Source: a plasmid. Taken from it: DNA of 64,000 nucleotides. Under the pieces are notes generated by a model, which was given only the letters and a program-made list of their open reading frames with translations, searched no databases and was not told the origin of the DNA. Of this stretch, positions 2,941 to 17,411 are shown piece by piece. The stretch is taken from the sequence record NZ_CP145916.1; one strand, given 5' to 3'. The position numbers and the translations under genes were made by a program. Positions within the stretch are counted from its first letter, which is position 1; the number at the start of each line of letters is the position of its first letter.

Positions 2941-3778
2941 GGTTTTAGCTCCGGTTTAATTGCATTAACGTGTCGTTCAGATAATGAAATTGTCTCATGG
3001 CGGAATAAGGGGTCGAATAGTGAGGCGGGAATCAATCTGTTATTTATTTCTCTCTCTTTGAATTGAAGATAACGGCGAGCAATCGGGTGCTAACTTTCTC
3101 GCACCGTTAATTCTTTGGTCAGTCTTATCCAGATTAAGTAAGTCCCTTTTGCTGAAAGAATGTGATGTTTAGAGAAGGGGGTTGGTTTTCTTGCCTTTCC
3201 CATTTACTGAAACATGTGGCGTAATTAATTTGAATGGAAGTGACGAGCAATAATAGCTTTGGTGCTTATCGCGGCATTAATCATTCGGGTAAAAACAGAG
3301 TCCTGACGTTGATATTTTTATATTAACAAACTGGTTTTAACTATCAGGTGACTGGATATATCCAGCCAGCGCGACGGAGATAATCAACGAGGCGGATTTA
3401 CGTTGGTGAAACCCCACCAGCAGGGGGCAGATTTGAGGGAAGAAGGGGAAAGGAGTTGGGGGTATTTCCGGCATAAACCTGATAAATTAAACCAACATGC
3501 AATAGAGGGGGGTAAGCCCCTACGCTTCGCTCCGGGGCAGGGAGCTGGACATCACCGCCGTGCCCTTTTGTGAGAAAAACCGCGTACTACTTTTCCCCCT
3601 GAGATCGGGCTTGAGAATGATTCGGTGACAATTCCCACATCCGGTGACGGGTATTTAAAACCCGGTTCGGCCCTGGTCTGAAATTAAGCTGTGGGTGTTT
3701 TATTAAAGAGAGAAAAGAGAGATAGAAAAAAGAACGCCGGGTTTGGCTCCGCACATTCTTCTTGGCGAGCGCCCCCAG

Positions 3779-3820
3779 AGATAAGAAGAGAAAATAAAGA
3801 GATAAGAAGAGAAAATAAAA
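3779..3820. repeat. Tandem direct repeat, 2 x ~21 bp (AGATAAGAAGAGAAAATAAA)
   Basis: Seen directly in the sequence, inside a ~1.1-kb non-coding stretch (3000-4080). Confidence 0.6.
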
Positions 3821-4084
3821 GAGGGTGCAGGGATGCGGAGTTTCAGCCATAAAAAAGGTAAAGGAAAAGACAGGTTTCTCAGCGCGTTAGTCTTTTATCG
3901 CTATATTGCATGTTGGTTTAATTTATCCATAAATGTCGCTGTGATAAAAATAAAAATGAACAATGAAAAGGGTAGGGGGAGAATGTCCCTTGCCGATAAA
4001 ACTGTTCCCGGTTTGTTATTTCTCTGCCCGCTGTTAAAAGTTGAAAGTTGATAACTTTGCAGTAAAATGCCGTTATCATATATA

Positions 4085-4100
4085 CTGTATAAATGTACAG
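4085..4100 (+). promoter_or_regulatory. LexA (SOS) box CTGTATAAATGTACAG for umuD
   Basis: Perfect CTGT-N8-ACAG motif 17 bp upstream of the umuD 5'-fragment ATG, followed by the SD aaggagag. Confidence 0.75.
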
Positions 4101-4116
4101 CTAAGGAGAGGCATTA

Positions 4117-4209
4117 ATGTCACTAAAACCTATGAAATCAGCCCCTGACACCAAAGAAACTATCCCTTTCTTTGGCGAGCTCGTACCCGCAGGTTTCCCT
4201 AGCCCAGCG
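4117..4209 (+). pseudogene. umuD: umuD/mucA-like 5' fragment (N-terminal ~31 codons), interrupted by element insertion
   Basis: Encodes MSLKPMKSAPDTKETIPFFGELVPAGFPSPA, matching the MucA/UmuD N-terminus (…IPFY…ISAGFPSPA) including the Ala-Gly cleavage site. The reading frame then runs into foreign sequence and stops at 4245. Confidence 0.75.
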
Positions 4210-4675
4210 CTTTTCCCATATTGCTCTTTTTTGTCAATGTTCTGAAATCTATTAATAAATAACGAAAAAATAATAAGATAGTAAGATAAATCTCGTTCAT
4301 ACCTACTTTTACGGCGTTGACAACTATCACTCGGTCGAGTTTTTTCACTGATCCCCGCTGGGATCCCCTAATTGGTTGCCTTAGCGCTCATCCGAGCAAA
4401 GTTGAGTTAGGCTAGTTAACTAAATAATATAAATGGCCTTGTCCGACTCAGGCGAGACGGAACAACTTCGGTGGCCTCGATAAGCGCTGGCCCACTCCGA
4501 ACCGTGAGAGTTTTTAAACAAACTGGTAAAGCAGACGCAATTCTCTTTCACTCGAAGCTGCTTTAAACCGCAGGTCGCGACCCATAACAGACGCTAATTC
4601 TTTAATCGATATTCGTTTTGATGTATCATCGCGAGCAGGAAACACCTTTCTTTATATCTAGGAAAAAACTATCGT

Positions 4676-5539
4676 ATGTACTCCAAATTTGTTGTTTTTG
4701 TATCGCTGTTAAGCAGCTTAACCCTCAGCATTCCTGCCAACTCTTCTCCAGACCTGATAGTCAACAGCATCAAAGAGGTAGAGCAAAACCTGGGTGCTAA
4801 AGTAGGAGTCTCAATCTACAGCGTTTCTGATGGTTACCTTTGGCATTACAACGGCGATTCACGTTTTCCGTTGATGAGCACCTTTAAAACTCTTGCATGT
4901 GCGAAATTGCTCCACGATGTTGAAACGGCGAAGCTGTCGATTGATCGATCTGTGAAGATTGAGGAACAAGACCTTATTACTTGGTCGCCGATAACAGAAA
5001 AGCTTGTTGGAGAGAGCTTTTCCCTCAAGCAGGCTTGCACGGCTGCAATGGTTATGAGTGACAACACAGCGGCTAATATAGTACTGGACGGTATTAGTGG
5101 CCCATCTGAATTGACCTTGTTCATGAAAGAACTCGGTGATGAAGTAACGCGACTGGATCGTATAGAGCCTCATTTAAATGAAGCGCGAAGCGGGGATGAG
5201 CGTGATACAACAACACCTAACGCGATTGTAAAAAGCCTCGGGAAACTGCTTTATGGCGAGAAACTCTCAAGTGGCTCTAAAGAACAATTAATTGAATGGA
5301 TGGCTGGCAACAAGGTGTCCGATAGCTTGTTGCGTTCAGTGCTACCAGAGGGGTGGTCAATTGCTGATAGGTCGGGTGCTGGTGGTTTTGGGTCTAGGGG
5401 AATCACCGCTGCGATTTGGTCAAATGAACAGCAGCCATTAATTGTTGCGATATATCTCACCCAGACTGAAGCTTCGTTTGACGAGAGAAATAAAGCTATT
5501 GCCAAAATAGGTAGAGAAATTTTCGCTTCTTATAACTAA
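4676..5539 (+). CDS. blaCARB-like: Class A beta-lactamase, CARB/PSE (carbenicillinase) family, divergent
   Basis: Has STFK, SDN, RLDRIEPxLNE and RDTTTP motifs, and RSG in place of KTG (LLRSVLPEGWSIADRSGAGGFG), as in PSE-1/CARB-2. Roughly half the residues differ from CARB-2 as recalled from memory. Signal peptide present. Confidence 0.85.
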   Translation: MYSKFVVFVSLLSSLTLSIPANSSPDLIVNSIKEVEQNLGAKVGVSIYSVSDGYLWHYNGDSRFPLMSTFKTLACAKLLHDVETAKLSIDRSVKIEEQDLITWSPITEKLVGESFSLKQACTAAMVMSDNTAANIVLDGISGPSELTLFMKELGDEVTRLDRIEPHLNEARSGDERDTTTPNAIVKSLGKLLYGEKLSSGSKEQLIEWMAGNKVSDSLLRSVLPEGWSIADRSGAGGFGSRGITAAIWSNEQQPLIVAIYLTQTEASFDERNKAIAKIGREIFASYN

Positions 5540-5859
5540 GGCAACTTGGCGGGTACTAAGCACCTCAGCATCATAAGATGAGAGGTGTTCTTTCAATCTT
5601 CCTTTATAGCGGCAGCTAAATCGCAGCTAAAGACATCGATCAGGCCGCTCCGTATGTCCGCATTGTGCCGACTCCGGTATATGCGCAGGAAAATCATCTA
5701 ACGTCCGGTTCCGGAAATTTCAGTTGGCTCTGTTAAAGCAACAGTGAGCGTATGCCCTCTCCCCCTTTAACGCTGCTCCTCAGAGACGGCTATACGGTAG
5801 TTATCTGCGGCCGTAGTTGAGCAGTGTGGTCATTTAGCAGTATCTCGCGCTATAAAAAA

Positions 5860-5875
5860 CTGTATGTATATACAG
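5860..5875 (+). promoter_or_regulatory. LexA (SOS) box CTGTATGTATATACAG within a 36-bp palindrome
   Basis: Perfect CTGT-N8-ACAG motif at 5860-5875. It is embedded in the palindrome CTATAAAAAACTGTAT-GTAT-ATACAGTTTTTTATAG (5850-5885), 50 bp upstream of the 5925 ORF. Confidence 0.75.
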
Positions 5876-5924
5876 TTTTTTATAGTAGGCTTATCTTGTA
5901 GAGCAAGGTGAGTGAGATCTCTTT

Positions 5925-8285
5925 ATGAGTCGGGTTTCCCCAAAAAGTTTTCCCCAAGGTATCATTACGAAAGGCCACACAGATAAGAATTTCCAGTTTC
6001 TGGTTCTGTCCGGTAATGTTTTGCTTCTAATTCAATCTCACCTTGCTAATTTACCGCCGTCCCAGCGGCGGAGCGCTAATAGGGCTGTGTTCTACTTCGA
6101 ATGTTTCCTGTGGCTAATCAACCATCCACCTATCACAAGCACTCTAGACCTTCGAACAAATGCTTTTCTGAGCATTCAGCGCCTTTTCTATGGCGCGCTT
6201 TACTCAAACTGTTTTCTGGCTGCTGAAGTAAAATACTCAGGCAGACAGAGACTTGTCCGGTATTTCTTTAAACTCCTCGCTGAGCTGTCTAAATCGTCTC
6301 CTATCAATATTTTTGTATATTCAGACCTTACAGATAGCCAGGTCCGAGAATGCATCGCTCAGTTTGAAGCTATTGGGATTGACCCTGTACGAGCAGCCAA
6401 GCTCATGGGGTGGCAAGTCGCAGACAGAAGCGCGAACTCATTTCGATTAAAGATGGGAGCCATCTTCGATGTTTTTGGGCCTGATTTTACGATGGAATTA
6501 CACCAGGAGAGTAAGAAGCACGCCTTGGCTCATAGTCATTATAGTAACTACGCTAATGTGGTCTCTCGATTTGATGATTTTCTGCGCTGGTATGACGATG
6601 ATCCGATAGACAGACCTTCCTTAAACGCTCACGTGCTCCAAGATCCAGTCTTTGTATATCAGCTTTTCTGGAGCTTTCAGCGCTGGCATTTCGAAGGGTA
6701 CTCCGAGCGGAGCCAAACCCAACCGACGGAACGGGTGTTGGCAAACCTTCAGCGCCAATGGATCAGAATCATCTGTTGGGCAAAGTCTGTTCTGGTTAGC
6801 GGAGGGCTTATGTGTTCCCCGCTTGGCGATGTGTGGCCCGAAGGGAGCAAAAAGCTCACTCGATTCCTCCATGAAGTAGGCCACCATCGATACGCTGATG
6901 GTGAATCCCTTGTATCACAAAAGCTTTTGACCCAGATCCCACTGTCTGTCACAGATAAGGAGGCAACGGAGCTTCTATTCAGACAGATCGAAGACGACTT
7001 CAATAAAGTCGTTCGGTGGGCTCGACGGGAGATTGATCACATAGCTCATCGTTTGAACGTTATTGATCAGGCCTGCGATCAAGGGGATCTGATAACGCTA
7101 GGTTCTCGAATATCTGCTCGGGCTTATGGCCAGCCTGTGATGGGGATGAACAGCCTTATCAGAACTGTAAAAGAAACCCACAACGGATTTGCAATCATCG
7201 ACCACGCTATGCGCGGCCACTTGGTAAGCGCAACAGGGAGTTCTTTTTCAACATCGGAGTTAGCGGCGAATCTGGCTATGCCGACGAAGTATGCGATTGC
7301 TCCCATCGCTCTCTGGCTAGTAGCGCAGCATCCCGTTCTGACCGAGGCATCTCTATTGAAATGCGAGTTATTCGACCGAAACGGTAAGCGAACCGGCTTT
7401 GTTAAGACCGACTCTGGATCTGTGCTTGTTGTGAAGAAAAACCGGAAAGGGAAGCAACAGGAGGTTGTACTGAGCGACGACGCAGCTTCGGTGGTCGAGC
7501 TGCTTATCCAGATCACGGCCCCGGTTAGGCGCTATCTCAAGGAGAAAAGGGATGATGCCTGGCGACGATTGTTCATCGTCGCGGGTGGTCAGGGCTTTCA
7601 GGAACCTTACACTTTCACAAACCAGACCAGCTTCGCCAAGATCCTCCGGCAGAAAGCCTTTATACAAGCTCATAGCGCCGAGTTAGGAGACATGGTCTCC
7701 GTATTGTCGCTGGCCCGGATAAGGGCTACCGCAGGTGTTCTCGTCTACCTCAAGTCGTTAAGCATAGAGAAAATGGCAGAGTCACTAGGCAACTCGAAAC
7801 GAGTCGCCATGAACCATTATCTGCCGCCTACCATCATGCAGTTTTTCCAAGAGCGGTGGGTCAGGATTTTCCAAAACGCGGTGATTGTCCACGCTATGAA
7901 GGACTCTCCTTATCTGCTTGATGCAACGGACTTTAGCAGCATGAGTGAGTTGGATATGTTTCTAGAGGCGCATGCCCTTCGAACGCCGCCTGAAGAACCC
8001 GAACAGCTGAGTAGTTCCTCTGAGCAAATATCTGGTTCGTCAGATCCAGAGATCGTTATTTCTATCGATGAAGGCGTTCTTGGTGTGCTCCTCTCGCTAA
8101 AAATGGCCGTTGAGCAAGCTGGCCCACGTGCGGCGGGAACGGCTGTGTACTGGAGCCAGTTCGCAGCGAAGATAGAGGCTCACATTGAATCTGATGGTTA
8201 TCTAGATCCATATATCCGCGGTTGTCTAGTTAAGGCTAAGGGGATAGCGAATCCTCAACAGTTTGAGGGTCTAGTCTATGGATGA
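5925..8285 (+). CDS. Large tyrosine-recombinase-fold protein, possibly catalytically degenerate
   Basis: The C-terminal region (LSLARIRATAGVLVYLKS…LGNSKRVAMNHYLPP) resembles the R…(H)xxR…Y box of phage integrases, but the conserved His is absent. First gene of an overlapping four-gene operon. Confidence 0.5.
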   Translation: MSRVSPKSFPQGIITKGHTDKNFQFLVLSGNVLLLIQSHLANLPPSQRRSANRAVFYFECFLWLINHPPITSTLDLRTNAFLSIQRLFYGALYSNCFLAAEVKYSGRQRLVRYFFKLLAELSKSSPINIFVYSDLTDSQVRECIAQFEAIGIDPVRAAKLMGWQVADRSANSFRLKMGAIFDVFGPDFTMELHQESKKHALAHSHYSNYANVVSRFDDFLRWYDDDPIDRPSLNAHVLQDPVFVYQLFWSFQRWHFEGYSERSQTQPTERVLANLQRQWIRIICWAKSVLVSGGLMCSPLGDVWPEGSKKLTRFLHEVGHHRYADGESLVSQKLLTQIPLSVTDKEATELLFRQIEDDFNKVVRWARREIDHIAHRLNVIDQACDQGDLITLGSRISARAYGQPVMGMNSLIRTVKETHNGFAIIDHAMRGHLVSATGSSFSTSELAANLAMPTKYAIAPIALWLVAQHPVLTEASLLKCELFDRNGKRTGFVKTDSGSVLVVKKNRKGKQQEVVLSDDAASVVELLIQITAPVRRYLKEKRDDAWRRLFIVAGGQGFQEPYTFTNQTSFAKILRQKAFIQAHSAELGDMVSVLSLARIRATAGVLVYLKSLSIEKMAESLGNSKRVAMNHYLPPTIMQFFQERWVRIFQNAVIVHAMKDSPYLLDATDFSSMSELDMFLEAHALRTPPEEPEQLSSSSEQISGSSDPEIVISIDEGVLGVLLSLKMAVEQAGPRAAGTAVYWSQFAAKIEAHIESDGYLDPYIRGCLVKAKGIANPQQFEGLVYG

Positions 8286-10401
8286 TAGCAGCGCGCTACC
8301 TCGCGAATTGGACTTCATAACGCGATCAGTCGATGCGGATCTAGGACTATTCCGAAGCGCTGAATGGCTCAATTCGAAGTTCGATGACCCAGTATGGAGC
8401 GCTCGTTTTGCCGAAAATGGCAAGAGAGACACTGTTATTGATTTCAGGGTTAGGCTCGATGATGGGCTACTGCTCACCCACCCAAGACATCACAACCTTT
8501 TGGAAAGCATAAAGGCATATTTATGTCTGTCGTCCCATCCGTTGGCCACCGGAGGCAGCCAGCTTGCCCCGAAGACGGTACAGCAAAGGGTTCGTACGAC
8601 CTTAGGTATCATCGACTACTTTCTCCTGAGAGCCGAGCATTTCCAACTGGCATCCCATCAGTTCAAGCTAATTACGCCGCATGACATAACTGAGTTCATG
8701 GCTGTGTTGGCTACTGATCAGTACGCTAAGAACAATCTCTACGCTGCGCGTGAAGAGCTACAGCGTTTCCTTCGCCTCAACAGCCATCAGGTTACGAAGC
8801 TGGAGACACAGTACGTTCTATCAAAGGTTCCTGGAATCGCTATTGTTGATGATGTAGATGAGAGCAACCTTGGCTTATCAGAGTCGGAGATTGTTGCGGC
8901 TAGGATTTTTCTGTGGATCAACGGAAACTACAAACGCATACCGATTAAGGCGGGTAGTCATGGGCATTCATTTTTTAGTCATCAAGTTTCTCCAAACAGT
9001 ATCTACTCTGAAATTTATCATGAGCGAACTTTAGTGACGCCTAAATTCCGGGGGCTGGTGCTGGACGAGCTCCACTTTAGCCCATCCGAGAAGACCTTTA
9101 GAGAGTATCCCATGGTTTCGTCCATGGTTCTGTATGATGATCCACTTCCCTCTGAGGCTGGGGTTGATTTCTACCGACAATCGCTTAAACGGATGGAACT
9201 CCTTAAGCTCTGTGGGCTGGACCATATCAACCATCTTTCGCTAACAGCCTTGGATAATAGAGCTTTCCTCGGGCAACTTAAGATGAAGGGCACCGGGCGT
9301 TACCGGTCGCTGCCTCGGGACGTCGTATTTTCATCGTTTCGGAACGCAGTGGAGTTCTACTTAGATTTGGGTCAGGTCCTTATCGATGGTTATCTGGCCT
9401 TGGCGCGAGAGGCTGATGCACGTGGATGTGCCATCGGGGATTTGACCCAATCTGAAACGATAGAGCTGATCCCAAAGAGGTTGCGAGACATCGGAGTAAG
9501 TATCTGGGATCTCTCGGCAGATTTTCGCGGGCAGAACCGTGGAGGCGGTAGCGCTCTGTTTTTTAAGCGGTTCAGAGAGAATGAGGGACTGCTCCAGCTA
9601 ATTGAGGTACTTTATGGTGCCATCTGGATAATACTCGCTGCGCTTAGTGCCAGACGTTCTGGAGAGCTTAGGGATCTTAAGGCAGATACCTGCCTTGTTA
9701 AGAAGTCCCATGGCTATTATTTACAGTTTGACTTGCGGAAACGGAACTTCGGCAAGACTCGTGAACAGGTCCTTCGTCCCATTCCCAATGTCGCGGCCCG
9801 GTGCATTCTGAGCTTGGGTGATCTTCGTCAGAAGCTCTCCTTGCTTAGTTCAGTTACGATTTCAGATAGGCTGTTCAGCAAGCCTCATTATCGCGAAGTT
9901 GGCCTGTCTGCGATGGGTTCAGTAGACGCGGCCAAGGTGCTAAACCGCTTTTCTGACTATTTCGAAGTCCAACAGGACGCTACTGGGCATCGTTATTACA
10001 TTCGTACCCATCAACTTAGACGCTTCTTCGCTATGACATTCTTCTGGGCCGGCGGATTTGGCGGCCTAGACACACTTCGGTGGTTTTTGGGTCATACGAA
10101 TGTCGAGCATGTTTATCACTACATCACAGAGACCGTTCCAGGAGAGGTGTTGCGAAGAATCGGTGCCGAATACGCATCTGATGCACTTCTCATAGGGCAG
10201 AGCAACACAGAAGATCTGGGTAATCTCCTACGTGAGCGTTACGGATTGTCATCATTTTCCATCATGCAGTCGGATGAAGTCGCAGACTATATCGAAGACC
10301 TAATGATGGAAGGGTTGCTAAAGATAGAGCCAGTCTTCTTCGACACACCGACAGGAAAGCGCCATGAGATCCTCTTTAAAATCACCGGAGAAAATTCATG
10401 A
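8278..10401 (+). CDS. Tyrosine recombinase (phage-integrase family), 707 aa
   Basis: Box I ARRSGELRDL, HxxR in RTHQLRRFFAMTF, and the nucleophile Tyr in LGHTNVEHVYHYIT. The start overlaps the upstream stop. Confidence 0.75.
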   Translation: MDDSSALPRELDFITRSVDADLGLFRSAEWLNSKFDDPVWSARFAENGKRDTVIDFRVRLDDGLLLTHPRHHNLLESIKAYLCLSSHPLATGGSQLAPKTVQQRVRTTLGIIDYFLLRAEHFQLASHQFKLITPHDITEFMAVLATDQYAKNNLYAAREELQRFLRLNSHQVTKLETQYVLSKVPGIAIVDDVDESNLGLSESEIVAARIFLWINGNYKRIPIKAGSHGHSFFSHQVSPNSIYSEIYHERTLVTPKFRGLVLDELHFSPSEKTFREYPMVSSMVLYDDPLPSEAGVDFYRQSLKRMELLKLCGLDHINHLSLTALDNRAFLGQLKMKGTGRYRSLPRDVVFSSFRNAVEFYLDLGQVLIDGYLALAREADARGCAIGDLTQSETIELIPKRLRDIGVSIWDLSADFRGQNRGGGSALFFKRFRENEGLLQLIEVLYGAIWIILAALSARRSGELRDLKADTCLVKKSHGYYLQFDLRKRNFGKTREQVLRPIPNVAARCILSLGDLRQKLSLLSSVTISDRLFSKPHYREVGLSAMGSVDAAKVLNRFSDYFEVQQDATGHRYYIRTHQLRRFFAMTFFWAGGFGGLDTLRWFLGHTNVEHVYHYITETVPGEVLRRIGAEYASDALLIGQSNTEDLGNLLRERYGLSSFSIMQSDEVADYIEDLMMEGLLKIEPVFFDTPTGKRHEILFKITGENS

Positions 10402-10976
10402 AGAAAGCATCACGGCAGGTGTCTGCTCAGCTTGAGATTAGCAACAGATCTGTTCTTTCTCGCGTTGAGTATCTCGAATCGATTATTCACTCACCCGCCG
10501 AGCATCAAGAAAACATAACACTTTTGATCGCTTTGAAGAGCCAAAGTGGACTTGCAAAGCTGGCGGTTAGCGAAGCTTTTATTTCTCCTATGTCTCTCAA
10601 TACGCTTAAGAACAGAGCGAATGACATACTCCCTGGTGGGTTTACGACTATTGATCACCTGAGACGCCAGGCCGCAAAAGCTATTCACGATTCAACCGTA
10701 GTCAAGCCTTCATCGTCCTCTATAACCAAGCAGGACCTCAAAGATAAGATTAAGGCTCAGGAAAGGACCATCTCTCAGTTGTGGGATGAAATCGCACTGG
10801 TTACGAATGTTTTTAGAGAATCAGTAACACTCGCCCAACAGTTTGCCGAGAAATGCCCAGACCCGGCAGATCTGATCCTTTTCAAAAAGCGCCGTAGAGA
10901 GCTGCTTTTAATGTTCTCATTAAGCAAGCGGCCTCAGACGCCTTTACATGAGAGCCCGTCCAATGCCGAAGGATGA
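10398..10976 (+). CDS. Small accessory protein of the recombinase operon
   Basis: 192-aa ORF whose start and stop overlap the flanking recombinase genes (ATGA). Hydrophilic and probably helical. Confidence 0.5.
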   Translation: MKKASRQVSAQLEISNRSVLSRVEYLESIIHSPAEHQENITLLIALKSQSGLAKLAVSEAFISPMSLNTLKNRANDILPGGFTTIDHLRRQAAKAIHDSTVVKPSSSSITKQDLKDKIKAQERTISQLWDEIALVTNVFRESVTLAQQFAEKCPDPADLILFKKRRRELLLMFSLSKRPQTPLHESPSNAEG

Positions 10977-12369
10977 GAAACTCTATAATCTAACGAGCGA
11001 TGTTTTCCGATTACCTTACGGGGTTGATCGAAATAGCCACGTCCTCAGCGTCAGAGCTGATAACATTCCGCTTCTCTGTTGGCCCGATGGCAGGCCGTGC
11101 ACCGAGGCGAACCTATATATGCTGCACTGTTTTGAGCGTGGACTTTCCCGTAAGGAAGGCGGTGGGACACTTACTCAATATGCCAAGCTTCTTTCACACC
11201 TTATTCGCTTTTGCTTTAACAACAACTACTCATTCATAGGGTTGACTGATTCTCGCTTTTCACTATTCATCAGAACGCTCCAAGGAGAAATGGATCCACG
11301 AAAACCAGAGCAGAGAAAACGGAGAGCAGCCCATGTGGCAAACATAGGGAGAACCTGCCTCGGCTTTTTAGGATTCGTTGGAGAACTCTATCTAGAACCG
11401 TCGTTCGTCGGCGCCGCAGGAACGATCAGGGCTGAGACGAAGGAGTTCAAGCTGGCTGGTCAGAGAAAGCAGATAGTCCATACCTATTGGCATCACCATT
11501 CCTTTCCTAACCCCGAGCCTCCAACACGGCGCTTACCTATCAATTCTACAAATATCGCAAAACTGATCGAAGTGATTCCGGATGTGAGCACGACGACCTA
11601 TCAGAGAAGACGGCGTTTCATTCTGGTCAAGCTTTTGGAGATTACTGGGGCAAGGCGAGTTGAGATCGCGAACATCAGAGTCGAAGACATCTATAACGCG
11701 AGGAAGATGAAGCAAGAGCCTGTTCTCAAGGTCTTCACCGCCAAGCGCTCGGGAGGAAGGGAAGAGTACAGATACTTGCCGGTTTCCAAAATGGACCTTG
11801 AATTGATCGTAAATTTCATCGAAAAGTTCCGACACCGGATCATTAAGAAGACCATCGGTAGCGCTAGTGACTTGGGCTATCTGCTGATTTCGGAAAGTAG
11901 TGGACTAAGGCTCGCTACCGAGACGCTGACGAATGAACTACTGCTGCTTGCCAAGGCTGCCAAGATCGAAGAGCAAGCCTGCGCACACATGTTCCGGCAT
12001 AGATTCATTACCAAGCTTTTTGTGGCTTTGATTGAGCAACATGAATTCGAAAATGGGGACGATTTTCGGCGTGCTCTCCTGGATGGTGAGACCCTCAAGA
12101 GAAAGGTTCAAGAGTACACGGGGCATACTTCGATCAGTAGTCTTGAACCGTATATTCACTTGGCTTTCGAGGAAGTGGCGAGGTTTGGAAGTACCTTAGA
12201 CCTGATTAAAGCAAAGCTTGCCGTTGAATCGCTACGGTCCAATCTCAAGGACATTGCTATCGAACTCAGACACGGCAGGAGTCCTACTGAATTGAGCGCC
12301 CTCCTCCGCGACTATATCGACTTGGCGCTGGAGGAACTCAGTAGCGCCTCAATTTCTACAGAGAGCTGA
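10948..12369 (+). CDS. Tyrosine recombinase (phage-integrase family), 473 aa
   Basis: Box I GARRVEIANIRVEDI, HxxR in HMFRHRFIT, and the nucleophile Tyr in GHTSISSLEPYIHLA. Confidence 0.75.
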   Translation: MRARPMPKDEKLYNLTSDVFRLPYGVDRNSHVLSVRADNIPLLCWPDGRPCTEANLYMLHCFERGLSRKEGGGTLTQYAKLLSHLIRFCFNNNYSFIGLTDSRFSLFIRTLQGEMDPRKPEQRKRRAAHVANIGRTCLGFLGFVGELYLEPSFVGAAGTIRAETKEFKLAGQRKQIVHTYWHHHSFPNPEPPTRRLPINSTNIAKLIEVIPDVSTTTYQRRRRFILVKLLEITGARRVEIANIRVEDIYNARKMKQEPVLKVFTAKRSGGREEYRYLPVSKMDLELIVNFIEKFRHRIIKKTIGSASDLGYLLISESSGLRLATETLTNELLLLAKAAKIEEQACAHMFRHRFITKLFVALIEQHEFENGDDFRRALLDGETLKRKVQEYTGHTSISSLEPYIHLAFEEVARFGSTLDLIKAKLAVESLRSNLKDIAIELRHGRSPTELSALLRDYIDLALEELSSASISTES

Positions 12370-12375
12370 CAAGAT

Positions 12376-12753
12376 ATGGGCAGAATGAGTTCATATGGGA
12401 ATCCTGCTGCTGGGTGGGAAGAGGCTGAACTTAATCTTCATACGCTGGTGGTTACTCATCCAGCCAGCACGTACTTCTTGCGCGTGACAGGTGACTCCAT
12501 GCAGGATGCTCGGATACATTCTGGTGACGTGCTGGTGGTTGATCGCTCAGAAACTCCAGAGCAGGGTAGTATTGTTGTTGCCAGCATCGACAACGAATTT
12601 ACAGTCAAGAAACTCATCTTGCGGCCACGTTCATGCCTTATGCCGATGAACCCGGCATACCCACCTATCTATTTTGACCCTGAAAGTAACGACGTTGAAA
12701 TTTGGGGTGTGGTGACTTACTCATTAATGAAGCACAAAAAATGTATGGCCTGA
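12376..12753 (+). CDS. umuD: UmuD/MucA-like 3' portion, re-started by element-derived sequence (UmuD'-like truncated product)
   Basis: …HPASTYFLRVTGDSMQDARIHSGDVLVVDRS…EFTVKKL… (S24 peptidase Ser-Lys dyad). It lacks the N-terminus, which lies at 4117-4209. The new Met sits 6 nt after the recombinase stop. Confidence 0.8.
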   Translation: MGRMSSYGNPAAGWEEAELNLHTLVVTHPASTYFLRVTGDSMQDARIHSGDVLVVDRSETPEQGSIVVASIDNEFTVKKLILRPRSCLMPMNPAYPPIYFDPESNDVEIWGVVTYSLMKHKKCMA

Positions 12754-14006
12754 TCGACATTAATTCCTGCTACTGTGCCTGCGAGCAAGCATTCAGGCCC
12801 GATCTTGCTGGTAAACCCGTAGTAGTTTTGTCAAACAATGATGCCAGCTGCATAGCCCGTAACAAGCAGGCGAAAGCCCTTGGTATAAAAATGGGCGAGC
12901 CATTCTTTAAAATCAAAGATCTCATAGAACGGAACAATGTCGCTGTTTTCAGTTCAAACTATGCCCTTTATTCCGCATTTAGTTCCCGGTTTGCATCTGT
13001 TATAGAGTCACTGACTCCGCGTAGCTCAGTGTATTCAATCGATGAACTTTGGTTTGATGCCACGAATATCACTGGTTTAATGACTCTTGATGCCTATGGC
13101 CGCATGTTGCGAGAAGAGGTACAGCGTCAGACAACGCTTACTTGTGGTGTTGGGATAGCACCGACAAAAACACTCGCGAAATTGTGTTCTCATGCTTCAA
13201 AAACCTATCCGGCAACTGGCGGAGTTGTCGCGCTTGATGATGTTACCCGTTTAGAAAAGCTGATGCGGCTTGTGCCCGTTGAAGACGTGTGGGGTGTTGG
13301 CCCACGGCTGGGTAAAAGGCTTCGGTTTATGGGAGTGGAAACCGCGTTTCAACTATCCTGCCTTGATCCTGTTCGGGTACGAAAGCAGTTCAATGTTGTC
13401 CTTGAGCGTACCGTCAGGGAACTCCGGGGGGAGCCTTGCATGGCGCTTGACGAAAATGATGTGATGAAACAGCAAATAGTCGTTTCCCGCTCCTTCGGTG
13501 AGCGAGTCACCAACCTTCATGAAATGCAGCAAGCCATAACCGATTATGCGGCTCGCGCTGCCGAAAAACTCCGGCAAGAAAAAGGGTATGTCTCTGTAAT
13601 TGGTGTTTTTATACGCACCAGCCCCTACGCAGTAAATGATGTACCTTATTCCAATCAGGCTACTGAAATGCTGGTGACTCCCTCCAACGACAGCAGGGAT
13701 ATTATTAATGCTGCACAACGCGCATTAAAACGGATCTGGAGGCCAGAAGTCCGTTATGCTAAAGCAGGTGTGATGCTTTGTGATATTCGCGAGCGTGAGC
13801 CTCAACTTGATTTGTTCACTGAATCGGCCCAGTACCGCAACAGTGAAAATCTCATGCAATTACTGGATACTCTCAACAAGCAGGGTAGACACAATTTGTT
13901 TTTTGCCGGACAAGGTATAAACCCCGTTTTCGCAATGAAGAGAAATATGCTATCCCCTGCATATTTGACTAGCTGGGATGATTTACCAAAGGTTAGGTTA
14001 GGATAA
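12741..14006 (+). CDS. umuC: Y-family DNA polymerase V catalytic subunit UmuC/MucB-like
   Basis: MYGLIDINSCYCACEQ… start typical of UmuC. Overlaps the umuD stop. ~420 aa. Confidence 0.85.
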   Translation: MYGLIDINSCYCACEQAFRPDLAGKPVVVLSNNDASCIARNKQAKALGIKMGEPFFKIKDLIERNNVAVFSSNYALYSAFSSRFASVIESLTPRSSVYSIDELWFDATNITGLMTLDAYGRMLREEVQRQTTLTCGVGIAPTKTLAKLCSHASKTYPATGGVVALDDVTRLEKLMRLVPVEDVWGVGPRLGKRLRFMGVETAFQLSCLDPVRVRKQFNVVLERTVRELRGEPCMALDENDVMKQQIVVSRSFGERVTNLHEMQQAITDYAARAAEKLRQEKGYVSVIGVFIRTSPYAVNDVPYSNQATEMLVTPSNDSRDIINAAQRALKRIWRPEVRYAKAGVMLCDIREREPQLDLFTESAQYRNSENLMQLLDTLNKQGRHNLFFAGQGINPVFAMKRNMLSPAYLTSWDDLPKVRLG

Positions 14007-14247: not shown

Positions 14248-14263
14248 CTGTATAAACTGACAG
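14248..14263 (+). promoter_or_regulatory. LexA box CTGTATAAACTGACAG
   Basis: CTGT-N8-ACAG motif 12 bp upstream of the tus-like ATG. Confidence 0.6.
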
Positions 14264-14274
14264 GGGTATCCGCT

Positions 14275-15159
14275 ATGGATTTAAAAAAAACATTTGAACA
14301 GCTTACGGACGATTTACTCGCCCTGAAAATGCTGATCAGCGGTAGCTCGCCTCTGTTTTCCCAAGTCTCCGACATTCCGCCCGTCCTGCGGGGGGATGAG
14401 CATTTACCCATTTCGTATGTTGCCCCTGATCACCTGTACGGCCATGAGGCCATTCAGAAGGCGGTTGATATCTGGAGTGACCTGCACATCAAGCATGATT
14501 TTTCCCAGAAGTCTGCACGTCGTGCATCCGGTGTTCTGTGGTTTCCATCAGAAGATAATGCGTTTACGGTCGAGCTCGTTCGCCTGCTGAGCCAAATCAA
14601 TGCCCTGAAAAAGAGTATTGAGACTCACATCATTACGACCTACCAGACACGTAGCGCACGATTTGAAGCCCTGCATAATCAATGTGCCGGGGTGCTGACT
14701 TTACATCTTTACCGTCAGATCCGCTGGTGGAAGGATGAGCATATATCAGCCGTGAGATTTAGCTGGCAAGAAAAGGAGTCTTTGCTCATTCCTGACAAAG
14801 CTGAGTTACTCGTGCGTATGAGCAAGGAAGGTAGGGAGGATGGGAAAAAAGAGGTGCCGCTTGCGTTGCTGATGAAGCAGATCGTTTCCGTACCGGAAGA
14901 ACGACTGCGTATAAGGCGTCGTCTCAAGGTTCAGCCATCGGCTAACATTTCGTTCCGTAGCGAGCAACACCCGACTGGGAAGCTGACAATGGTCACGGCT
15001 CCGATGCCCTTCATTATTATTCAGAATGAACGGCCAGAGGTGAAAATGCTCAAAATCTATGATGCGAATGAGCGAATCAGCCGTAAGCGACGTAACGACA
15101 AAGTGCATACGGAAATCCTCGGTACGTTTCATGGCGAAAGTATCGAAGTGATTGCCTGA
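14275..15159 (+). CDS. tus: Tus-like replication terminus-binding protein
   Basis: Colinear similarity to E. coli Tus (EDEH(N/L)P; VLTLHLYR ~ LITLNAYR; RLKVQPSA ~ PVKVQPIA; APMPFIIIQNE ~ PTPLIALINRD). Confidence 0.65.
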   Translation: MDLKKTFEQLTDDLLALKMLISGSSPLFSQVSDIPPVLRGDEHLPISYVAPDHLYGHEAIQKAVDIWSDLHIKHDFSQKSARRASGVLWFPSEDNAFTVELVRLLSQINALKKSIETHIITTYQTRSARFEALHNQCAGVLTLHLYRQIRWWKDEHISAVRFSWQEKESLLIPDKAELLVRMSKEGREDGKKEVPLALLMKQIVSVPEERLRIRRRLKVQPSANISFRSEQHPTGKLTMVTAPMPFIIIQNERPEVKMLKIYDANERISRKRRNDKVHTEILGTFHGESIEVIA

Positions 15160-15195
15160 TAAGGTTTTTCTGGACATTATCCTTTGGTAGTATTA

Positions 15196-15211
15196 CTGTA
15201 TATGTATACAG
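15196..15211 (+). promoter_or_regulatory. LexA box TACTGTATATGTATACAGTA (perfect palindrome)
   Basis: Consensus SOS box 19 bp upstream of the dinI-like gene. Confidence 0.75.
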
Positions 15212-15229
15212 TAATTTACCGGGGGGTAT

Positions 15230-15463
15230 ATGTTACGTATAAATGTGTGTTTCGATGCCAGCAAGAAAGTGCCTGCTAAAATCCAGCAGGCATTACGAGC
15301 TGAGATAGAGAAAGAGATCTTGTCTAATTACGAACGTGGTGTGGTAAGTGTGGGGAAGGGAAGCAGCGCAGAAGTGTCGATCAGTGGCGTTGATGATGAT
15401 GAAAAAAAAGTAATAATGCAGAAGCTTGAAGACATCTGGCAAAGTGACAGCTGGTTGCCTTGA
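15230..15463 (+). CDS. dinI: DinI-like SOS protein
   Basis: 77 aa. Aligns with DinI (…VSV…KEDKQ…EILQETWES.DDWF ~ VVSVGKGS…DDDEKKVIMQKLEDIWQSDSWLP). Preceded by a LexA box. Confidence 0.65.
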   Translation: MLRINVCFDASKKVPAKIQQALRAEIEKEILSNYERGVVSVGKGSSAEVSISGVDDDEKKVIMQKLEDIWQSDSWLP

Positions 15464-15485
15464 TCGTTTTATTTTTTGCATGTGA

Positions 15486-15511
15486 ACTGGGCTTCTGGCC
15501 CAGTTTTTTTT
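15486..15511 (+). terminator. Rho-independent terminator (CTGGGCTTCTGGCCCAG plus T9)
   Basis: GC-rich hairpin followed by a T-run after the dinI-like gene. Confidence 0.6.
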
Positions 15512-15531
15512 TGCCCTAAATCTGCACGATA

Positions 15532-15541
15532 GCTATTCGAC
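15532..15541 (+). promoter_or_regulatory. CTATTCGACC promoter-like motif, copy 1
   Basis: Conserved 10-mer followed ~13 nt later by GTGTG, then an ORF start. Confidence 0.45.
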
Positions 15542-15649
15542 CCTCATCCTGAGTGTGTGACCATATTGGACTTACAGATAGGGCTGGCTGTCACGCCCAC
15601 CAGCGGAACCTCATCATTTATCACCATTTCATTAAGTAAAGGAGGTTAT

Positions 15650-16000
15650 ATGAAAAACGATTTCTCTCTCAACATGGGTAGTAAAATGGATGCCATTTTC
15701 AACCAGATGTTTTCAGCGCCAAACTCTTCTTTTCAAAACGCGCCTGCCGCTGGTGGCACGAATGCACGACGCAAAAAAAAGGACATTATCCGCCTGACTG
15801 TTCGCTCCAAAACCGGAGGAACCAACCTTGTTACCATAGCCAAAGATACGCCAGTATTCACGCCCAAACAGGTTAGTGATCTGGCTATTGGCGAACATGG
15901 CCATCTCGACATTTTCATCATCGACTATGGTACTCATCGCACCTTAAATACGAAAAACATCCAGCATGAATCCCCGCTTGAACGGGAAATAATTCAATAA
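15650..16000 (+). CDS. hypothetical protein
   Basis: ATG preceded by the SD ggagg. The ORF track's 15557 start is probably too long. Confidence 0.45.
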   Translation: MKNDFSLNMGSKMDAIFNQMFSAPNSSFQNAPAAGGTNARRKKKDIIRLTVRSKTGGTNLVTIAKDTPVFTPKQVSDLAIGEHGHLDIFIIDYGTHRTLNTKNIQHESPLEREIIQ

Positions 16001-16030
16001 AACTGCTTGATGTAATTGATATTTTCTAAG

Positions 16031-16053
16031 CTGCCTTTGGGCAGTTTTTTTTT
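16031..16053 (+). terminator. Rho-independent terminator (CTGCCTTTGGGCAG plus T9)
   Basis: Hairpin plus T-run. Confidence 0.55.
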
Positions 16054-16072
16054 CAATTTTTTCTCTGCTTTG

Positions 16073-16082
16073 CTATTCGACC
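16073..16082 (+). promoter_or_regulatory. CTATTCGACC promoter-like motif, copy 2
   Basis: Same motif and downstream GTGTGCC. It precedes the 16107 ORF. Confidence 0.45.
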
Positions 16083-16106
16083 CCCTGATCAGGTGTGCCA
16101 ATCTAA

Positions 16107-16469
16107 TTGAAAGACAATCAACACATGAGACAGAAAATGACAGGGACTAATGATTCTAACTATCAGCCAGATGAGCTAAAGGCTATTGCATCGTTTGACG
16201 CACTTGGCATCTTTGCGACGCTAAACAAACTGACTGCATTAAGTAACGTCGCACAAGCTCGCCTCGCGGAGTGTTTCGCACAAAACGACTCTATTCCTAG
16301 TGGATTCACTGCCCTCGATTTTCTTACTCCAGAAGAGCGGGAAGAACATCACATCCTGCGCCTGTCTCTTGCGATCTGCGTCGATGAACAGAGTGAAGCA
16401 AATAAGCGCGTGAATGCGCGTCTGAAAGCCCGACATGAGGAATATAAGGCAAAACGGGGTGCCGTATAG
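16107..16469 (+). CDS. hypothetical protein
   Basis: 120-aa ORF. The true start may be an internal Met (16126 or 16136). Confidence 0.4.
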   Translation: MKDNQHMRQKMTGTNDSNYQPDELKAIASFDALGIFATLNKLTALSNVAQARLAECFAQNDSIPSGFTALDFLTPEEREEHHILRLSLAICVDEQSEANKRVNARLKARHEEYKAKRGAV

Positions 16470-16545
16470 AGAAAGCATCTTCTATCAGCAAGGAACGTCA
16501 GAAAAGGACTGAAACAGTGAAGTATCAGAAGAGGGGGGTATCCCT

Positions 16546-16809
16546 GTGAAAATAGGACAGCGACAACAATCAATTCTTTCCGCTATCTATAAGAATGGTG
16601 GGAAATTCTGGCCCAGTTGTGGAATTGTCTGGCTAAATTTCAGCACGACGAGAACTATTTTAGATTCTCTCGTAAAAAAACGACTCCTGACCGATAAAGG
16701 GAATTGTCGATACACAATCACGGAGAAAGGCAAAGAGCTCGGTGATCCTGACCGTTATTTCAAAGAACTTTTAAACAAACAGTTAAAGTCACGCAAGAGA
16801 AGCTCTTGA
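16546..16809 (+). CDS. Small putative winged-helix DNA-binding protein
   Basis: 87 aa, basic C-terminus, GTG start after a G-rich SD. Confidence 0.35.
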   Translation: MKIGQRQQSILSAIYKNGGKFWPSCGIVWLNFSTTRTILDSLVKKRLLTDKGNCRYTITEKGKELGDPDRYFKELLNKQLKSRKRSS

Positions 16810-16841
16810 GCTGACTTTGAAACCGTAATGATGGAGACAGA

Positions 16842-17030
16842 TTGATGATGAAAAGCATTATGCCCTCTCGCTCGGTAACGTCATTGTTGGCTCGTGAAGT
16901 ATCTCTTCTCGGGGAGAAAATGGGTGAGGCGATGACGCAATGTCGGAACAGCAAAGAAGAGGCTGCTCTTGAAGATGCGCTGCAAAATTTGGCCCGTGTT
17001 AAATCCACTCTGGACAAAGCCGTTAATTAA
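16842..17030 (+). CDS. small hypothetical protein
   Basis: 62-aa ORF. Confidence 0.3.
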   Translation: MMMKSIMPSRSVTSLLAREVSLLGEKMGEAMTQCRNSKEEAALEDALQNLARVKSTLDKAVN

Positions 17031-17066
17031 CGGCTTTACCTCATATTATTTTAAAGGATAGGTGTC

Positions 17067-17411
17067 GTGGAAAAGTTTCTGGAGTACGTAGGCGTCATGG
17101 AGCACCACTACGGAAGTGCTGTAGCTGCGCAGTTTATCAATGCCAATGCTGCCATTATTGCTGCTGATGATTCTGATGATGATTCCGAGTCATATTCGAC
17201 CCGTGTTGAAGAGATCACATCCCTATTGGATGCGGTCAATAAAGCTGGTGGTGTACCTGATCACAGGCTTGTTGTAGAGCGTGTTAGCCCGAACTCTACC
17301 CGCGTTATTTTGAATGGCCCTCATGGTATGGTCTGGCGTTGCTATGTATTTCAGGACGATTTTATGTTCTGCTTTACTCAAACGCTGGCAAGTGTTTTGC
17401 CTGCAAAATAA
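17067..17411 (+). CDS. hypothetical protein
   Basis: 114-aa ORF. Confidence 0.4.
   Translation: MEKFLEYVGVMEHHYGSAVAAQFINANAAIIAADDSDDDSESYSTRVEEITSLLDAVNKAGGVPDHRLVVERVSPNSTRVILNGPHGMVWRCYVFQDDFMFCFTQTLASVLPAK

Follow-up and report, generated by a model that had tools for sequence, protein, structure and literature searches.

Murphy's work on Tn554 reportedly showed that this transposon carries over a 6-bp core from its previous site. As the rule is now described for Tn554 and for SEs (strand-biased circularizing integrative elements), the 6 bp beside the recombinase-proximal end enter the circle and, at the next site, come to lie at the distal junction; the proximal junction keeps the hexamer of the new target (PMC10214605, PMC9345347). 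Multi-recombinase elements are also known from SOS-mutagenesis genes, where Rhodes et al. (2014) reported that they target rulB and found no interruption of rulA-like genes (PMC4542609). Here we analyse a stretch of 64,000 nucleotides from a plasmid (sequence record NZ_CP145916.1), termed “the window” and numbered from its first letter, in which the umuD gene is interrupted by an element carrying the beta-lactamase gene blaHMS-1 and a four-gene operon that we call T-B-S-A. The element is very likely Tn6912, and we consider it probable that this copy is a non-conjugative, site- and orientation-specific element moved by its own T-B-S-A module into the DNA encoding GFPS/PA (the slash marks the insertion point) of umuD and rumA genes, with hexamer carry-over of the kind described for Tn554 and SEs.

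The first-pass annotation, made from the letters of the window, had read two distant coding stretches as the halves of one umuD separated by a precise insertion, and the search for an uninterrupted umuDC allele among plasmids confirmed it. Megablast of 4000-12900 against the 72,556 plasmids of PLSDB found umuD uninterrupted in eight, Rts1 (NC_003905) and seven others, with both flanks matching at 97.5-99.7% identity, nothing between them and the annotated umuD intact. Rts1 is an IncT plasmid of Proteus vulgaris. A natively split umuD without intact counterpart is thus countered, and none of the PLSDB plasmids holds this IncT insertion. Taking 4204-12402 out of the window gives back the sequence of Rts1 without a base changed: the empty site reads CCCTAGC-CCTGCT-GCTGGG in Rts1, and the window has CCCTAGC-CCAGCG-CTTTTCCCATAT at its left junction and ATATGGGAAT-CCTGCT-GCTGGG at its right. 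The insert therefore measures 8,199 bp and consists of a hexamer (4204-4209) and an element of 8,193 bp (4210-12402). Base-level comparison with Rts1 revealed no target-site duplication at the window junctions, as the annotation had also noticed; such a duplication was rejected because the hexamers at the two junctions are unlike and a single one is present in the empty site.

The other landmarks proposed at first pass hold as well (Table 1); the extra hexamer, the LexA box before the recombinase operon and the UmuD′-like ORF had gone unnoticed there. Translation of 4117-4209 gives MSLKPMKSAPDTKETIPFFGELVPAGFPSPA, the first 31 residues of UmuD with GFPSPA at the end, preceded by an AAGGAG Shine-Dalgarno sequence and the LexA box, and the extra hexamer CCAGCG still codes for Pro-Ala in frame. 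Promoter-like hexamers lie at 4041-4068, and six CTGT-N8-ACAG sites occur in the window against 0.73 expected. The remainder of umuD is recognised by its Peptidase_S24 domain and followed by the overlapping umuC. The terminal inverted repeat was found to have a perfect 9-bp core, TTCCCATAT on the left and ATATGGGAA on the right. Its left copy is kept as [C/G]TTTTCCCAT in the relatives at loci L096 and L097, and the right terminal region is near-invariant in relatives whose proteins are 66-87% identical, including those with cargo between gene A and the end. Searches for subterminal repeats gave nothing beyond the terminal core and the ATATGG doublet of the right end, and a scan for sigma-70 promoters and terminators nothing useful within the element.

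According to the junctions extracted from all loci, ten different umuD/rumA alleles house the element or relatives 66-87% identical to it: on plasmids (the Rts1-type plasmid of the window and pPROV073-3), in SXT/R391 ICEs (integrative and conjugative elements) of Proteus, Providencia and Vibrio parahaemolyticus, and in chromosomal umuD genes of Providencia, Thalassolituus, Serratia and Cedecea, as well as at locus L008. These alleles are highly divergent at the DNA level; in all ten the insertion point is the Ser/Pro codon boundary of GFPS/PA, the orientation is the same, and left and right flanks alike turn into the local allele at exactly the same nucleotide. This recurrence bears out the early suggestion of a discrete integrative element with a specific site in umuD. 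A Peptidase_S24 gene fragment lies 3′ of the last recombinase gene in 10/10 places shown. The exact 192-aa S protein is indexed in 396 blocks of a public assembly collection. Nine full copies differ by 0-3 nt from the window copy over 8,193 bp, and two, in V. parahaemolyticus CP007004 and in GCA_003112715, are identical to it with all four open reading frames (ORFs) intact; V. parahaemolyticus UCM-V493 is among the hosts of identical copies, and identical elements were also found in SXT/R391-type contexts of Providencia genomes (L006, L010 and L013).

The hexamers flanking these copies follow a pattern. On the bla side (left), near-identical copies have CCAGCG, CCAGCC or CCTGCA, all of the form CCNGCN and all Pro-Ala codon pairs, such as might be found in natural umuD alleles. 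The hexamer on the A side (right) is always the local target's own: CCTGCT, CCCGCT, CCAGCG or CCGGCC in Tn6912 copies; the truncated copy L014 has CCTGCG, and among the relatives L097 has CCGGCA and L018 has CCTGCA. Left and right hexamers are unequal in 6/12 junction pairs, which excludes a target duplication, and since three hexamer alleles stand beside a near-invariant 8 kb, point mutation is no explanation. The hexamer at 4204-4209 would then be the footprint of the previous insertion site. It equals the native hexamer of SXT/R391 rumA, which makes an SXT/R391 ICE the probable donor of the window copy, with the reservation that at least one chromosomal umuD (L011) has the same native CCAGCG. 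Because the right flank of the window codes for AAGWEE, very unlike the usual QDYVE, recognition of the target seems to depend mainly on GGNTTNCC-N4-CCNGCN.

Several loci show further events around these sites. The SXT/R391 copy at L015:3803-3840 has an 8-bp deletion at its left junction, reading TCACCA/CCCATATTG and missing GCGCTTTT; both the hexamer and the terminal repeat lose some of their bases by the deletion, which has probably left this copy unable to move. At L014:11979-20579 (GCA_000752335.1, CCFB01000003.1) two different multi-recombinase elements occupy one SOS-mutagenesis operon: umuD holds a Tn6912 remnant (B-S-A and the right end, without bla and T), and umuC, directly downstream, holds an SE-type module of four genes (products of 429, 576, 687 and 154 aa) and, after it, a resistance-nodulation-division (RND) efflux cluster. 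In SXT/R391 contexts with Tn6912 in rumA (L007:12780-14730 and L015:12780-14048), rumB is interrupted after about 100 codons by the gene of a recombinase distantly related to SE IntA (21% identity, E 1e-8), which looks like a remnant of another element.

The genes of the element all point in the same direction as umuD. The last four are translationally coupled, and their overlapping stop and start codons identify them as an operon; cargo lies upstream of it in Tn6912, and gene A ends 33 bp short of the right terminus. In the alignments A has an invariant full catalytic set (R236, K266, H347-x-x-R350, H393, Y402), as has B with its R-K-H-R-H-Y residues (R460, K488, H578-Q-L-R581, H606, Y615). 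T, B and S of the window matched nothing in Pfam, NCBIfam or a PDB sequence-profile search, and a weak Pfam Phage_integrase match is seen in 5/25 members of the B family. T is a protein of tyrosine-recombinase fold according to the AlphaFold 2 (AF2) model, which showed this fold with 80 distant representatives in the alignment (with 20 close homologues the predicted local distance difference test score, pLDDT, was 52); comparison of T with A and with B by hhalign was not significant. S is conserved over its N-terminal ~95 aa, with a variable and heptad-rich C-terminal half. Pfam and NCBIfam scans found no relaxase or other mobility or transfer domain in any ORF of the element.

Table 1. Features of the element and its flanks in the window (positions from the first letter of the 64,000-nt stretch)
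Feature	Position	Strand	Remarks
LexA (SOS) box of the plasmid umuD promoter	4085..4100	+	CTGTATAAATGTACAG
umuD 5′ fragment, 29 codons to Ser of GFPS	4117..4203	+	Same as Rts1
Extra hexamer CCAGCG, incoming with the element	4204..4209	+	Rts1 has the single hexamer CCTGCT here
Left terminal repeat CTTTTCCCATATT	4210..4222	+	Core TTCCCATAT; begins at the first base unlike the empty site
blaHMS-1, class A beta-lactamase, cargo	4676..5539	+	Pfam Beta-lactamase2 E 4e-38
36-bp perfect palindrome	5850..5885	+	Holds LexA box CTGTATGTATATACAG at 5860-5875, 50 bp upstream of the recombinase operon (T)
T, 786-aa tyrosine-recombinase-fold protein (Tfp/GinC analogue)	5925..8285	+	Arg I and His II apparently missing; Lys, Arg II and Tyr apparently kept
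B, 707-aa large tyrosine recombinase (IntB/TnpB analogue)	8278..10401	+	8-nt overlap with T
S, 192-aa small protein (positional analogue of Srap/GinD/TnpC)	10398..10976	+	4-nt overlap with B
A, 473-aa (468 in RefSeq) ordinary tyrosine recombinase (IntA/TnpA analogue)	10948..12369	+	Pfam Phage_integrase E 2e-12
Right terminal region CTGACAAGATATGGGCAGAATGAGTTCATATGGGAAT	12366..12402	+	Contains ATATGG twice; ATATGGGAA at the terminus pairs with the left inverted repeat
UmuD′-like ORF	12376..12753	+	Starts at 12376 or 12385 in the element's right end; Peptidase_S24 E 1e-25
Target's own hexamer CCTGCT (attB crossover region)	12403..12408	+	Same as Rts1
umuC of the plasmid, intact	12702..14006	+	Overlaps umuD 3′ end; Pfam IMS, IMS_C, DUF4113

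Outside the element, tandem repeats lie upstream of umuD at 894-977 (31 bp, 2.6 copies) and 3777-3819 (21 bp, 2.0 copies) and may be iteron-like. At 14275-15159 there is a gene for a Tus-like replication-terminus-binding protein (Pfam Ter, E 2e-45), bracketed by two more perfect LexA-box matches at 14248-14263 and 15196-15211.

The operon is not peculiar to this plasmid. A scan with one genome per species gave 142 relatives of B, clustering of T at 50% identity left 657 representatives, and the order T-B-S-A is kept in 80/80 loci. The hosts (Pseudomonas, including megaplasmids, Stutzerimonas, Marinobacter, Photobacterium, Legionella, Methylophilus, Polaromonas, Kordiimonas and others) span Gamma-, Beta- and Alphaproteobacteria. 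The position of the module within the element varies: T begins about 80 bp from the left boundary in a Stutzerimonas group, and the Hafnia, Serratia and Cedecea relatives have cargo on both sides, namely a cyclic oligonucleotide-based antiphage signalling system (CBASS), Gabija and KAP-NTPase genes. The Serratia, Cedecea and Hafnia elements (L096:2279-21717, L097:5657-21407 and L018:7645-19772; 66-77% protein identity) sit at the same umuD codon and carry anti-phage systems in place of bla. Those of L096 and L097 are 15-19 kb long; for the Hafnia copy, L018, no left end could be located. Their cargo comprises a SMODS/HORMA/Cap17 CBASS in L096 with a Cap17-like gene also in L018, Gabija-like OLD-TOPRIM and UvrD genes in L096, L097 and L018, and a KAP NTPase in L097/L098. 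In Stutzerimonas azotifigens (L065:5491-7632 and 14667-17216) a T-B-S-A element adjoins a 5′-truncated hrpB helicase gene, with a second, full-length hrpB (77% DNA identity) just 3′ of gene A and then Gabija-like genes. The same arrangement of hrpB recurs in L064, L068, L073, L086 and L087, and an element of this type may bring a replacement copy of the gene that it disrupts.

HMS-1 has been known as a beta-lactamase since the 1970s, and R997 is a Proteus element of 1977. The R997 locus is 99.9% identical at the DNA level to the bla segment of the window; its bla gene is named HMS-1, and the papers on R997 and Proteus ICEs put blaHMS-1 in ‘variable region III’ (PMC5561048, PMC5124997). The first-pass description of the gene as CARB-like is right as to kind, as CARB/PSE/GMA are the nearest NCBIfam models of this class A enzyme, yet every score is under the cut-off of those families and the gene is the known blaHMS-1. 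After the generic CARB/PSE model the best one is blaGMA (329 bits against a cut-off of 600); blaGMA-1 is the cargo of SE-6945, so that related beta-lactamases ride on two lineages of multi-recombinase elements. The proposal that the element is new did not survive either. A 2022 paper lists ‘an IME Tn6912 (containing blaHMS-1)’ inside the SXT/R391 ICE Tn6860, IME standing for integrative mobilizable element; it gives the name without describing genes, ends, target or mechanism, and the IME label without supporting analysis (PMC9058013). The copy of pPROV073 has been termed a ‘blaHMS-1-related region’ (PMC12184191). We matched the window element to Tn6912 by the described blaHMS-1 cargo and ICE context, not by deposited boundaries, and the identity is very likely. 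What we have is a catalogued but uncharacterised transposon, present in hundreds of public assemblies. The open-access literature yielded no description of the vehicle that moves blaHMS-1 and none of the T-B-S-A module, of which an earlier account may exist elsewhere. The family-level architecture, the umuD target, the in-silico evidence for hexamer carry-over and the SOS links appear to be new.

Some copies are incomplete. In R997 (L003:5723, NZ_KY433363, corresponding to window 5924/5925) the element is cut exactly at the T start codon by an ISVsa3 (IS91-like) region, and the historical source of HMS-1 therefore keeps the left 1.7 kb only. The copy in the Escherichia coli chromosome NZ_CP069386 is truncated inside T. 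One truncated copy was found in 5,426 complete genomes of E. coli, which is therefore not a reservoir.

Two features tie the element to the SOS response. The first is the LexA box held by the palindrome upstream of T, which suggests that movement is switched on by this response. The close relatives L016 and L017 have the box too, and overall it occurs in 4/65 family loci; as a family-wide feature it was rejected on that count, and its restriction to the closest relatives fits a specialisation of the umuD-targeting subgroup. The second is the ORF that begins inside the right end, at one of two ATG codons 7 and 16 nt past the stop of A. It reads MGRMSSYGN-PAAGWEEAELNLH and is fused in frame to umuD from Pro-Ala on; RefSeq annotates the equivalent ORF of pPROV073-3 as umuD. 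UmuD cleaves itself at Ala-Gly (Cys-Gly in E. coli) to yield the activated UmuD′. The insertion point lies four codons past this cleavage site, so that the predicted product resembles UmuD′, and the right end would recreate a UmuD′-like protein upstream of an intact umuC.

Taken with the described behaviour of Tn554 and the SEs, the junctions suggest how Tn6912 may move. Its ends (TTCCCATAT and ATATGGGAA) would be joined into a circle that takes up the 6 bp beside the A-proximal (right) end. On integration the A-distal (bla) end would receive the carried hexamer and the A-proximal end would keep that of the target itself, so that no duplication arises and heterologous hexamers are tolerated; strand bias and a copy-out mode may be part of the process. 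The LexA box before T-B-S-A would let the SOS response turn movement on. Conjugative plasmids and SXT/R391 ICEs often carry operons of the umuDC type, and the element would therefore spread by riding them. A more far-reaching reading, which we offer as a tentative possibility, holds that T-B-S-A elements are a distinct and hitherto unrecognised third lineage among the multi-tyrosine-recombinase transposons of the Tn554/SE/GInt kind, that the umuD subgroup is LexA-repressed and triggered by damage, and that insertion produces a pre-activated UmuD′.

A number of observations tell against our main reading of Tn6912. The metagenome contigs of the Joint Genome Institute (JGI) and 98 fetched loci gave no exact match to the joint of a circular form (right end-N6-left end), a negative that counts weakly. 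CCAGCG stands on both sides in most copies, leaving the 6/12 unequal junction pairs as the informative ones. T, B and S are without significant sequence similarity to SE proteins by BLASTP and hhalign, and the mechanistic analogy therefore rests on architecture and hexamer pattern. The catalytic residues of T were assigned by manual alignment (motif order and fold) together with a weak profile match of 10% probability. Finally, the LexA box is limited to the close Tn6912 subgroup.

The strongest competitor is that Tn6912 is a plain member of the SE family whose intA has shifted to the operon end, in which case SE biology would suffice. The likeness is considerable. SEs (SE-6283, SE-6945, SE-PaeBT2436; PMC9345347, PMC10214605) likewise combine an ordinary and a large tyrosine recombinase with the RHRY residues, a recombinase-fold protein without full active site and a small auxiliary protein, so that the four functional roles are the same, and T-B-S-A is a cyclic permutation of intA-tfp-intB-srap. 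They also have short imperfect terminal inverted repeats, no target duplication, few specific targets, no transfer genes, and a class A beta-lactamase or other resistance cargo, that of SE-6945 being CARB/GMA-like as here. Their 6-bp footprint rule describes Tn6912 too, in which the A-distal hexamer varies and the A-proximal one is the target's, with the right junction as presumed donor. We compared the proteins with those of the tmexCD-type SE in umuC of locus L014. The profile comparison envisaged at first pass related A to SE IntA (hhalign, 93% probability) and, faintly, B to SE IntB (25%, E 8e-4, over 80 N-terminal residues), the two sharing an HQLRR box; T against Tfp and S against Srap gave nothing significant, and BLASTP no match for any of the four.

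Against SE membership, the deviation in gene order and sizes that the annotation had remarked on proved to be family-wide, fixed in the 80/80 loci. SEs have intA-tfp-intB-srap at the motif C (left) end, where their operon begins, whereas the operon of Tn6912 points to and adjoins its end. T and S lack the sequence similarity to Tfp and Srap by which SEs are recognised, and T appears, from the manual alignment, to keep Tyr and Arg II, unlike the described SE Tfp; the Cys-rich cluster in the C-terminal part of SE IntB is missing from B. The target is umuD, unlike in SEs, and the family extends to Beta- and Alphaproteobacteria, whereas SEs are reported from Gammaproteobacteria only. The published SE/GInt PSI-BLAST surveys (tfp-srap, ginC-ginD) screened NZ_CP007004, a carrier of a Tn6912-type element, and listed a single SE, which lies at another locus, but no GInt; their tables contain no protein of this element. 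On balance we regard plain SE membership as unlikely.

Less probable still is a conventional IME, in which A alone integrates and excises the element conservatively at att cores that are identical, mobilisation relies on an oriT so far unrecognised, and T, B and S play an accessory part or none. The published IME label speaks for it, as does the fact that A is the sole recognisable phage-type integrase; but unequal hexamers at half of the junction pairs are not expected from conservative recombination with an identical core, the four genes are coupled and co-conserved in every locus compared, no relaxase domain was found in the element's ORFs, though the sequence may contain an oriT, and the label came without analysis. 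It is also very improbable that the window copy is an inactive fossil whose split umuD was merely inherited. Damage does occur, at or within T in the R997 and E. coli copies, by an insertion sequence (IS) in A in L010, by IS66 in L008, by loss of bla and T in L014 and by the junction deletion in L015; yet the window copy has its four ORFs intact and is 100% identical over its whole length to those of CP007004 and GCA_003112715, and the absence of the IncT insertion from PLSDB beside eight empty sites points to a recent event. A single insertion later spread among umuD-family genes by homologous recombination or gene conversion is scarcely credible: the umuD, rumA and umuC flanks are homologous and often in one cell (L010 and L011 come from one genome), but the exact switch of both flanks in ten highly divergent alleles excludes such spread, donor flank beyond 6 bp is never co-transferred, and the Ser codon left of the window hexamer is AGC as in Rts1, not TCA as in rumA.

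If Tn6912 does move by its own module into umuD-type genes, its target is a motif of 6 codons belonging to a gene family carried by conjugative plasmids and SXT/R391 ICEs themselves, and an element that is not conjugative can therefore load blaHMS-1, or anti-phage systems such as the CBASS and Gabija of its relatives, onto almost any such vector. For the history of blaHMS-1, the exact ends and target of the vehicle are now defined and a likely mode of movement is proposed. Should the more tentative SOS reading be true as well, DNA damage, including that caused by antibiotics, would trigger movement onto co-resident conjugative plasmids and ICEs; a short element-encoded leader would replace the self-cleaving N-terminus of UmuD, RecA-mediated cleavage would no longer be needed, and the error-prone polymerase V would be rewired and not destroyed. 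The LexA box and the UmuD′-like fusion would in that case connect antibiotic-induced SOS, transposition and mutagenesis through links that are testable. With hundreds of members across Gamma-, Beta- and Alphaproteobacteria, a third gene order besides those of SEs and GInts also gives comparative leverage on why several recombinase-type proteins are needed and how heterologous 6-bp cores are tolerated.

The first-pass annotation had been reminded of Tn554, of RIT elements and of the Vibrio SEs. Tn554 and the SEs are indeed, together with GInts, the closest analogues, and the RIT comparison fails on sizes and ends. RIT elements are a trio of adjacent recombinases of ordinary size, ritA, ritB and ritC, flanked by long inverted repeats; membership was rejected for Tn6912, whose recombinase-type proteins are 786, 707 and 473 aa in size and enclose a 192-aa non-recombinase, and whose terminal repeat core is just 9 bp. 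GInts (ginABCD; Bardaji et al., 2017, PMC5385486) resemble it in having three recombinase-type proteins and a small fourth in one operon, in resistance or fitness cargo and in high insertion specificity; their att sites are not identical and their circles take up a few host nucleotides (PMC5385486). GinC is without the first arginine and keeps the rest, and T appears alike. However, in GInts the order ginA-ginB-ginC-ginD marks the 5′ end and the cargo of the island lies entirely downstream of it, whereas Tn6912 has another order with cargo upstream, and the relatives L018 and L096 carry cargo on both sides of the module; GInts are also bordered by 10-11-nt imperfect direct repeats, unlike Tn6912. 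The ginC-ginD survey scored NZ_CP007004 as 0, and GInts were otherwise compared by description.

Tn554 shares with Tn6912 a site- and orientation-specific insertion, the lack of a target duplication and the 6-bp core carried from the previous site (PMC10214605). It is set apart, by description, as a Firmicutes (Staphylococcus) element with the target att554 and the order tnpA-tnpB-tnpC, without a protein of the T/Tfp/GinC type, whereas Tn6912 has T as a fourth large protein. The integron-like elements and SEs in rulB, rumB and umuC (PMC4542609; tmexCD-toprJ SEs) are multi-recombinase elements which, like Tn6912, target the SOS-mutagenesis operon of plasmids and ICEs 3′ of the LexA box; they interrupt the polymerase gene, whereas Tn6912 interrupts a umuD-type gene. 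By analogy with these systems, and with GInts and Tn554 compared by description, we conclude that T-B-S-A elements would work like SEs, GInts and Tn554, yet appear to belong to none of them as currently defined.

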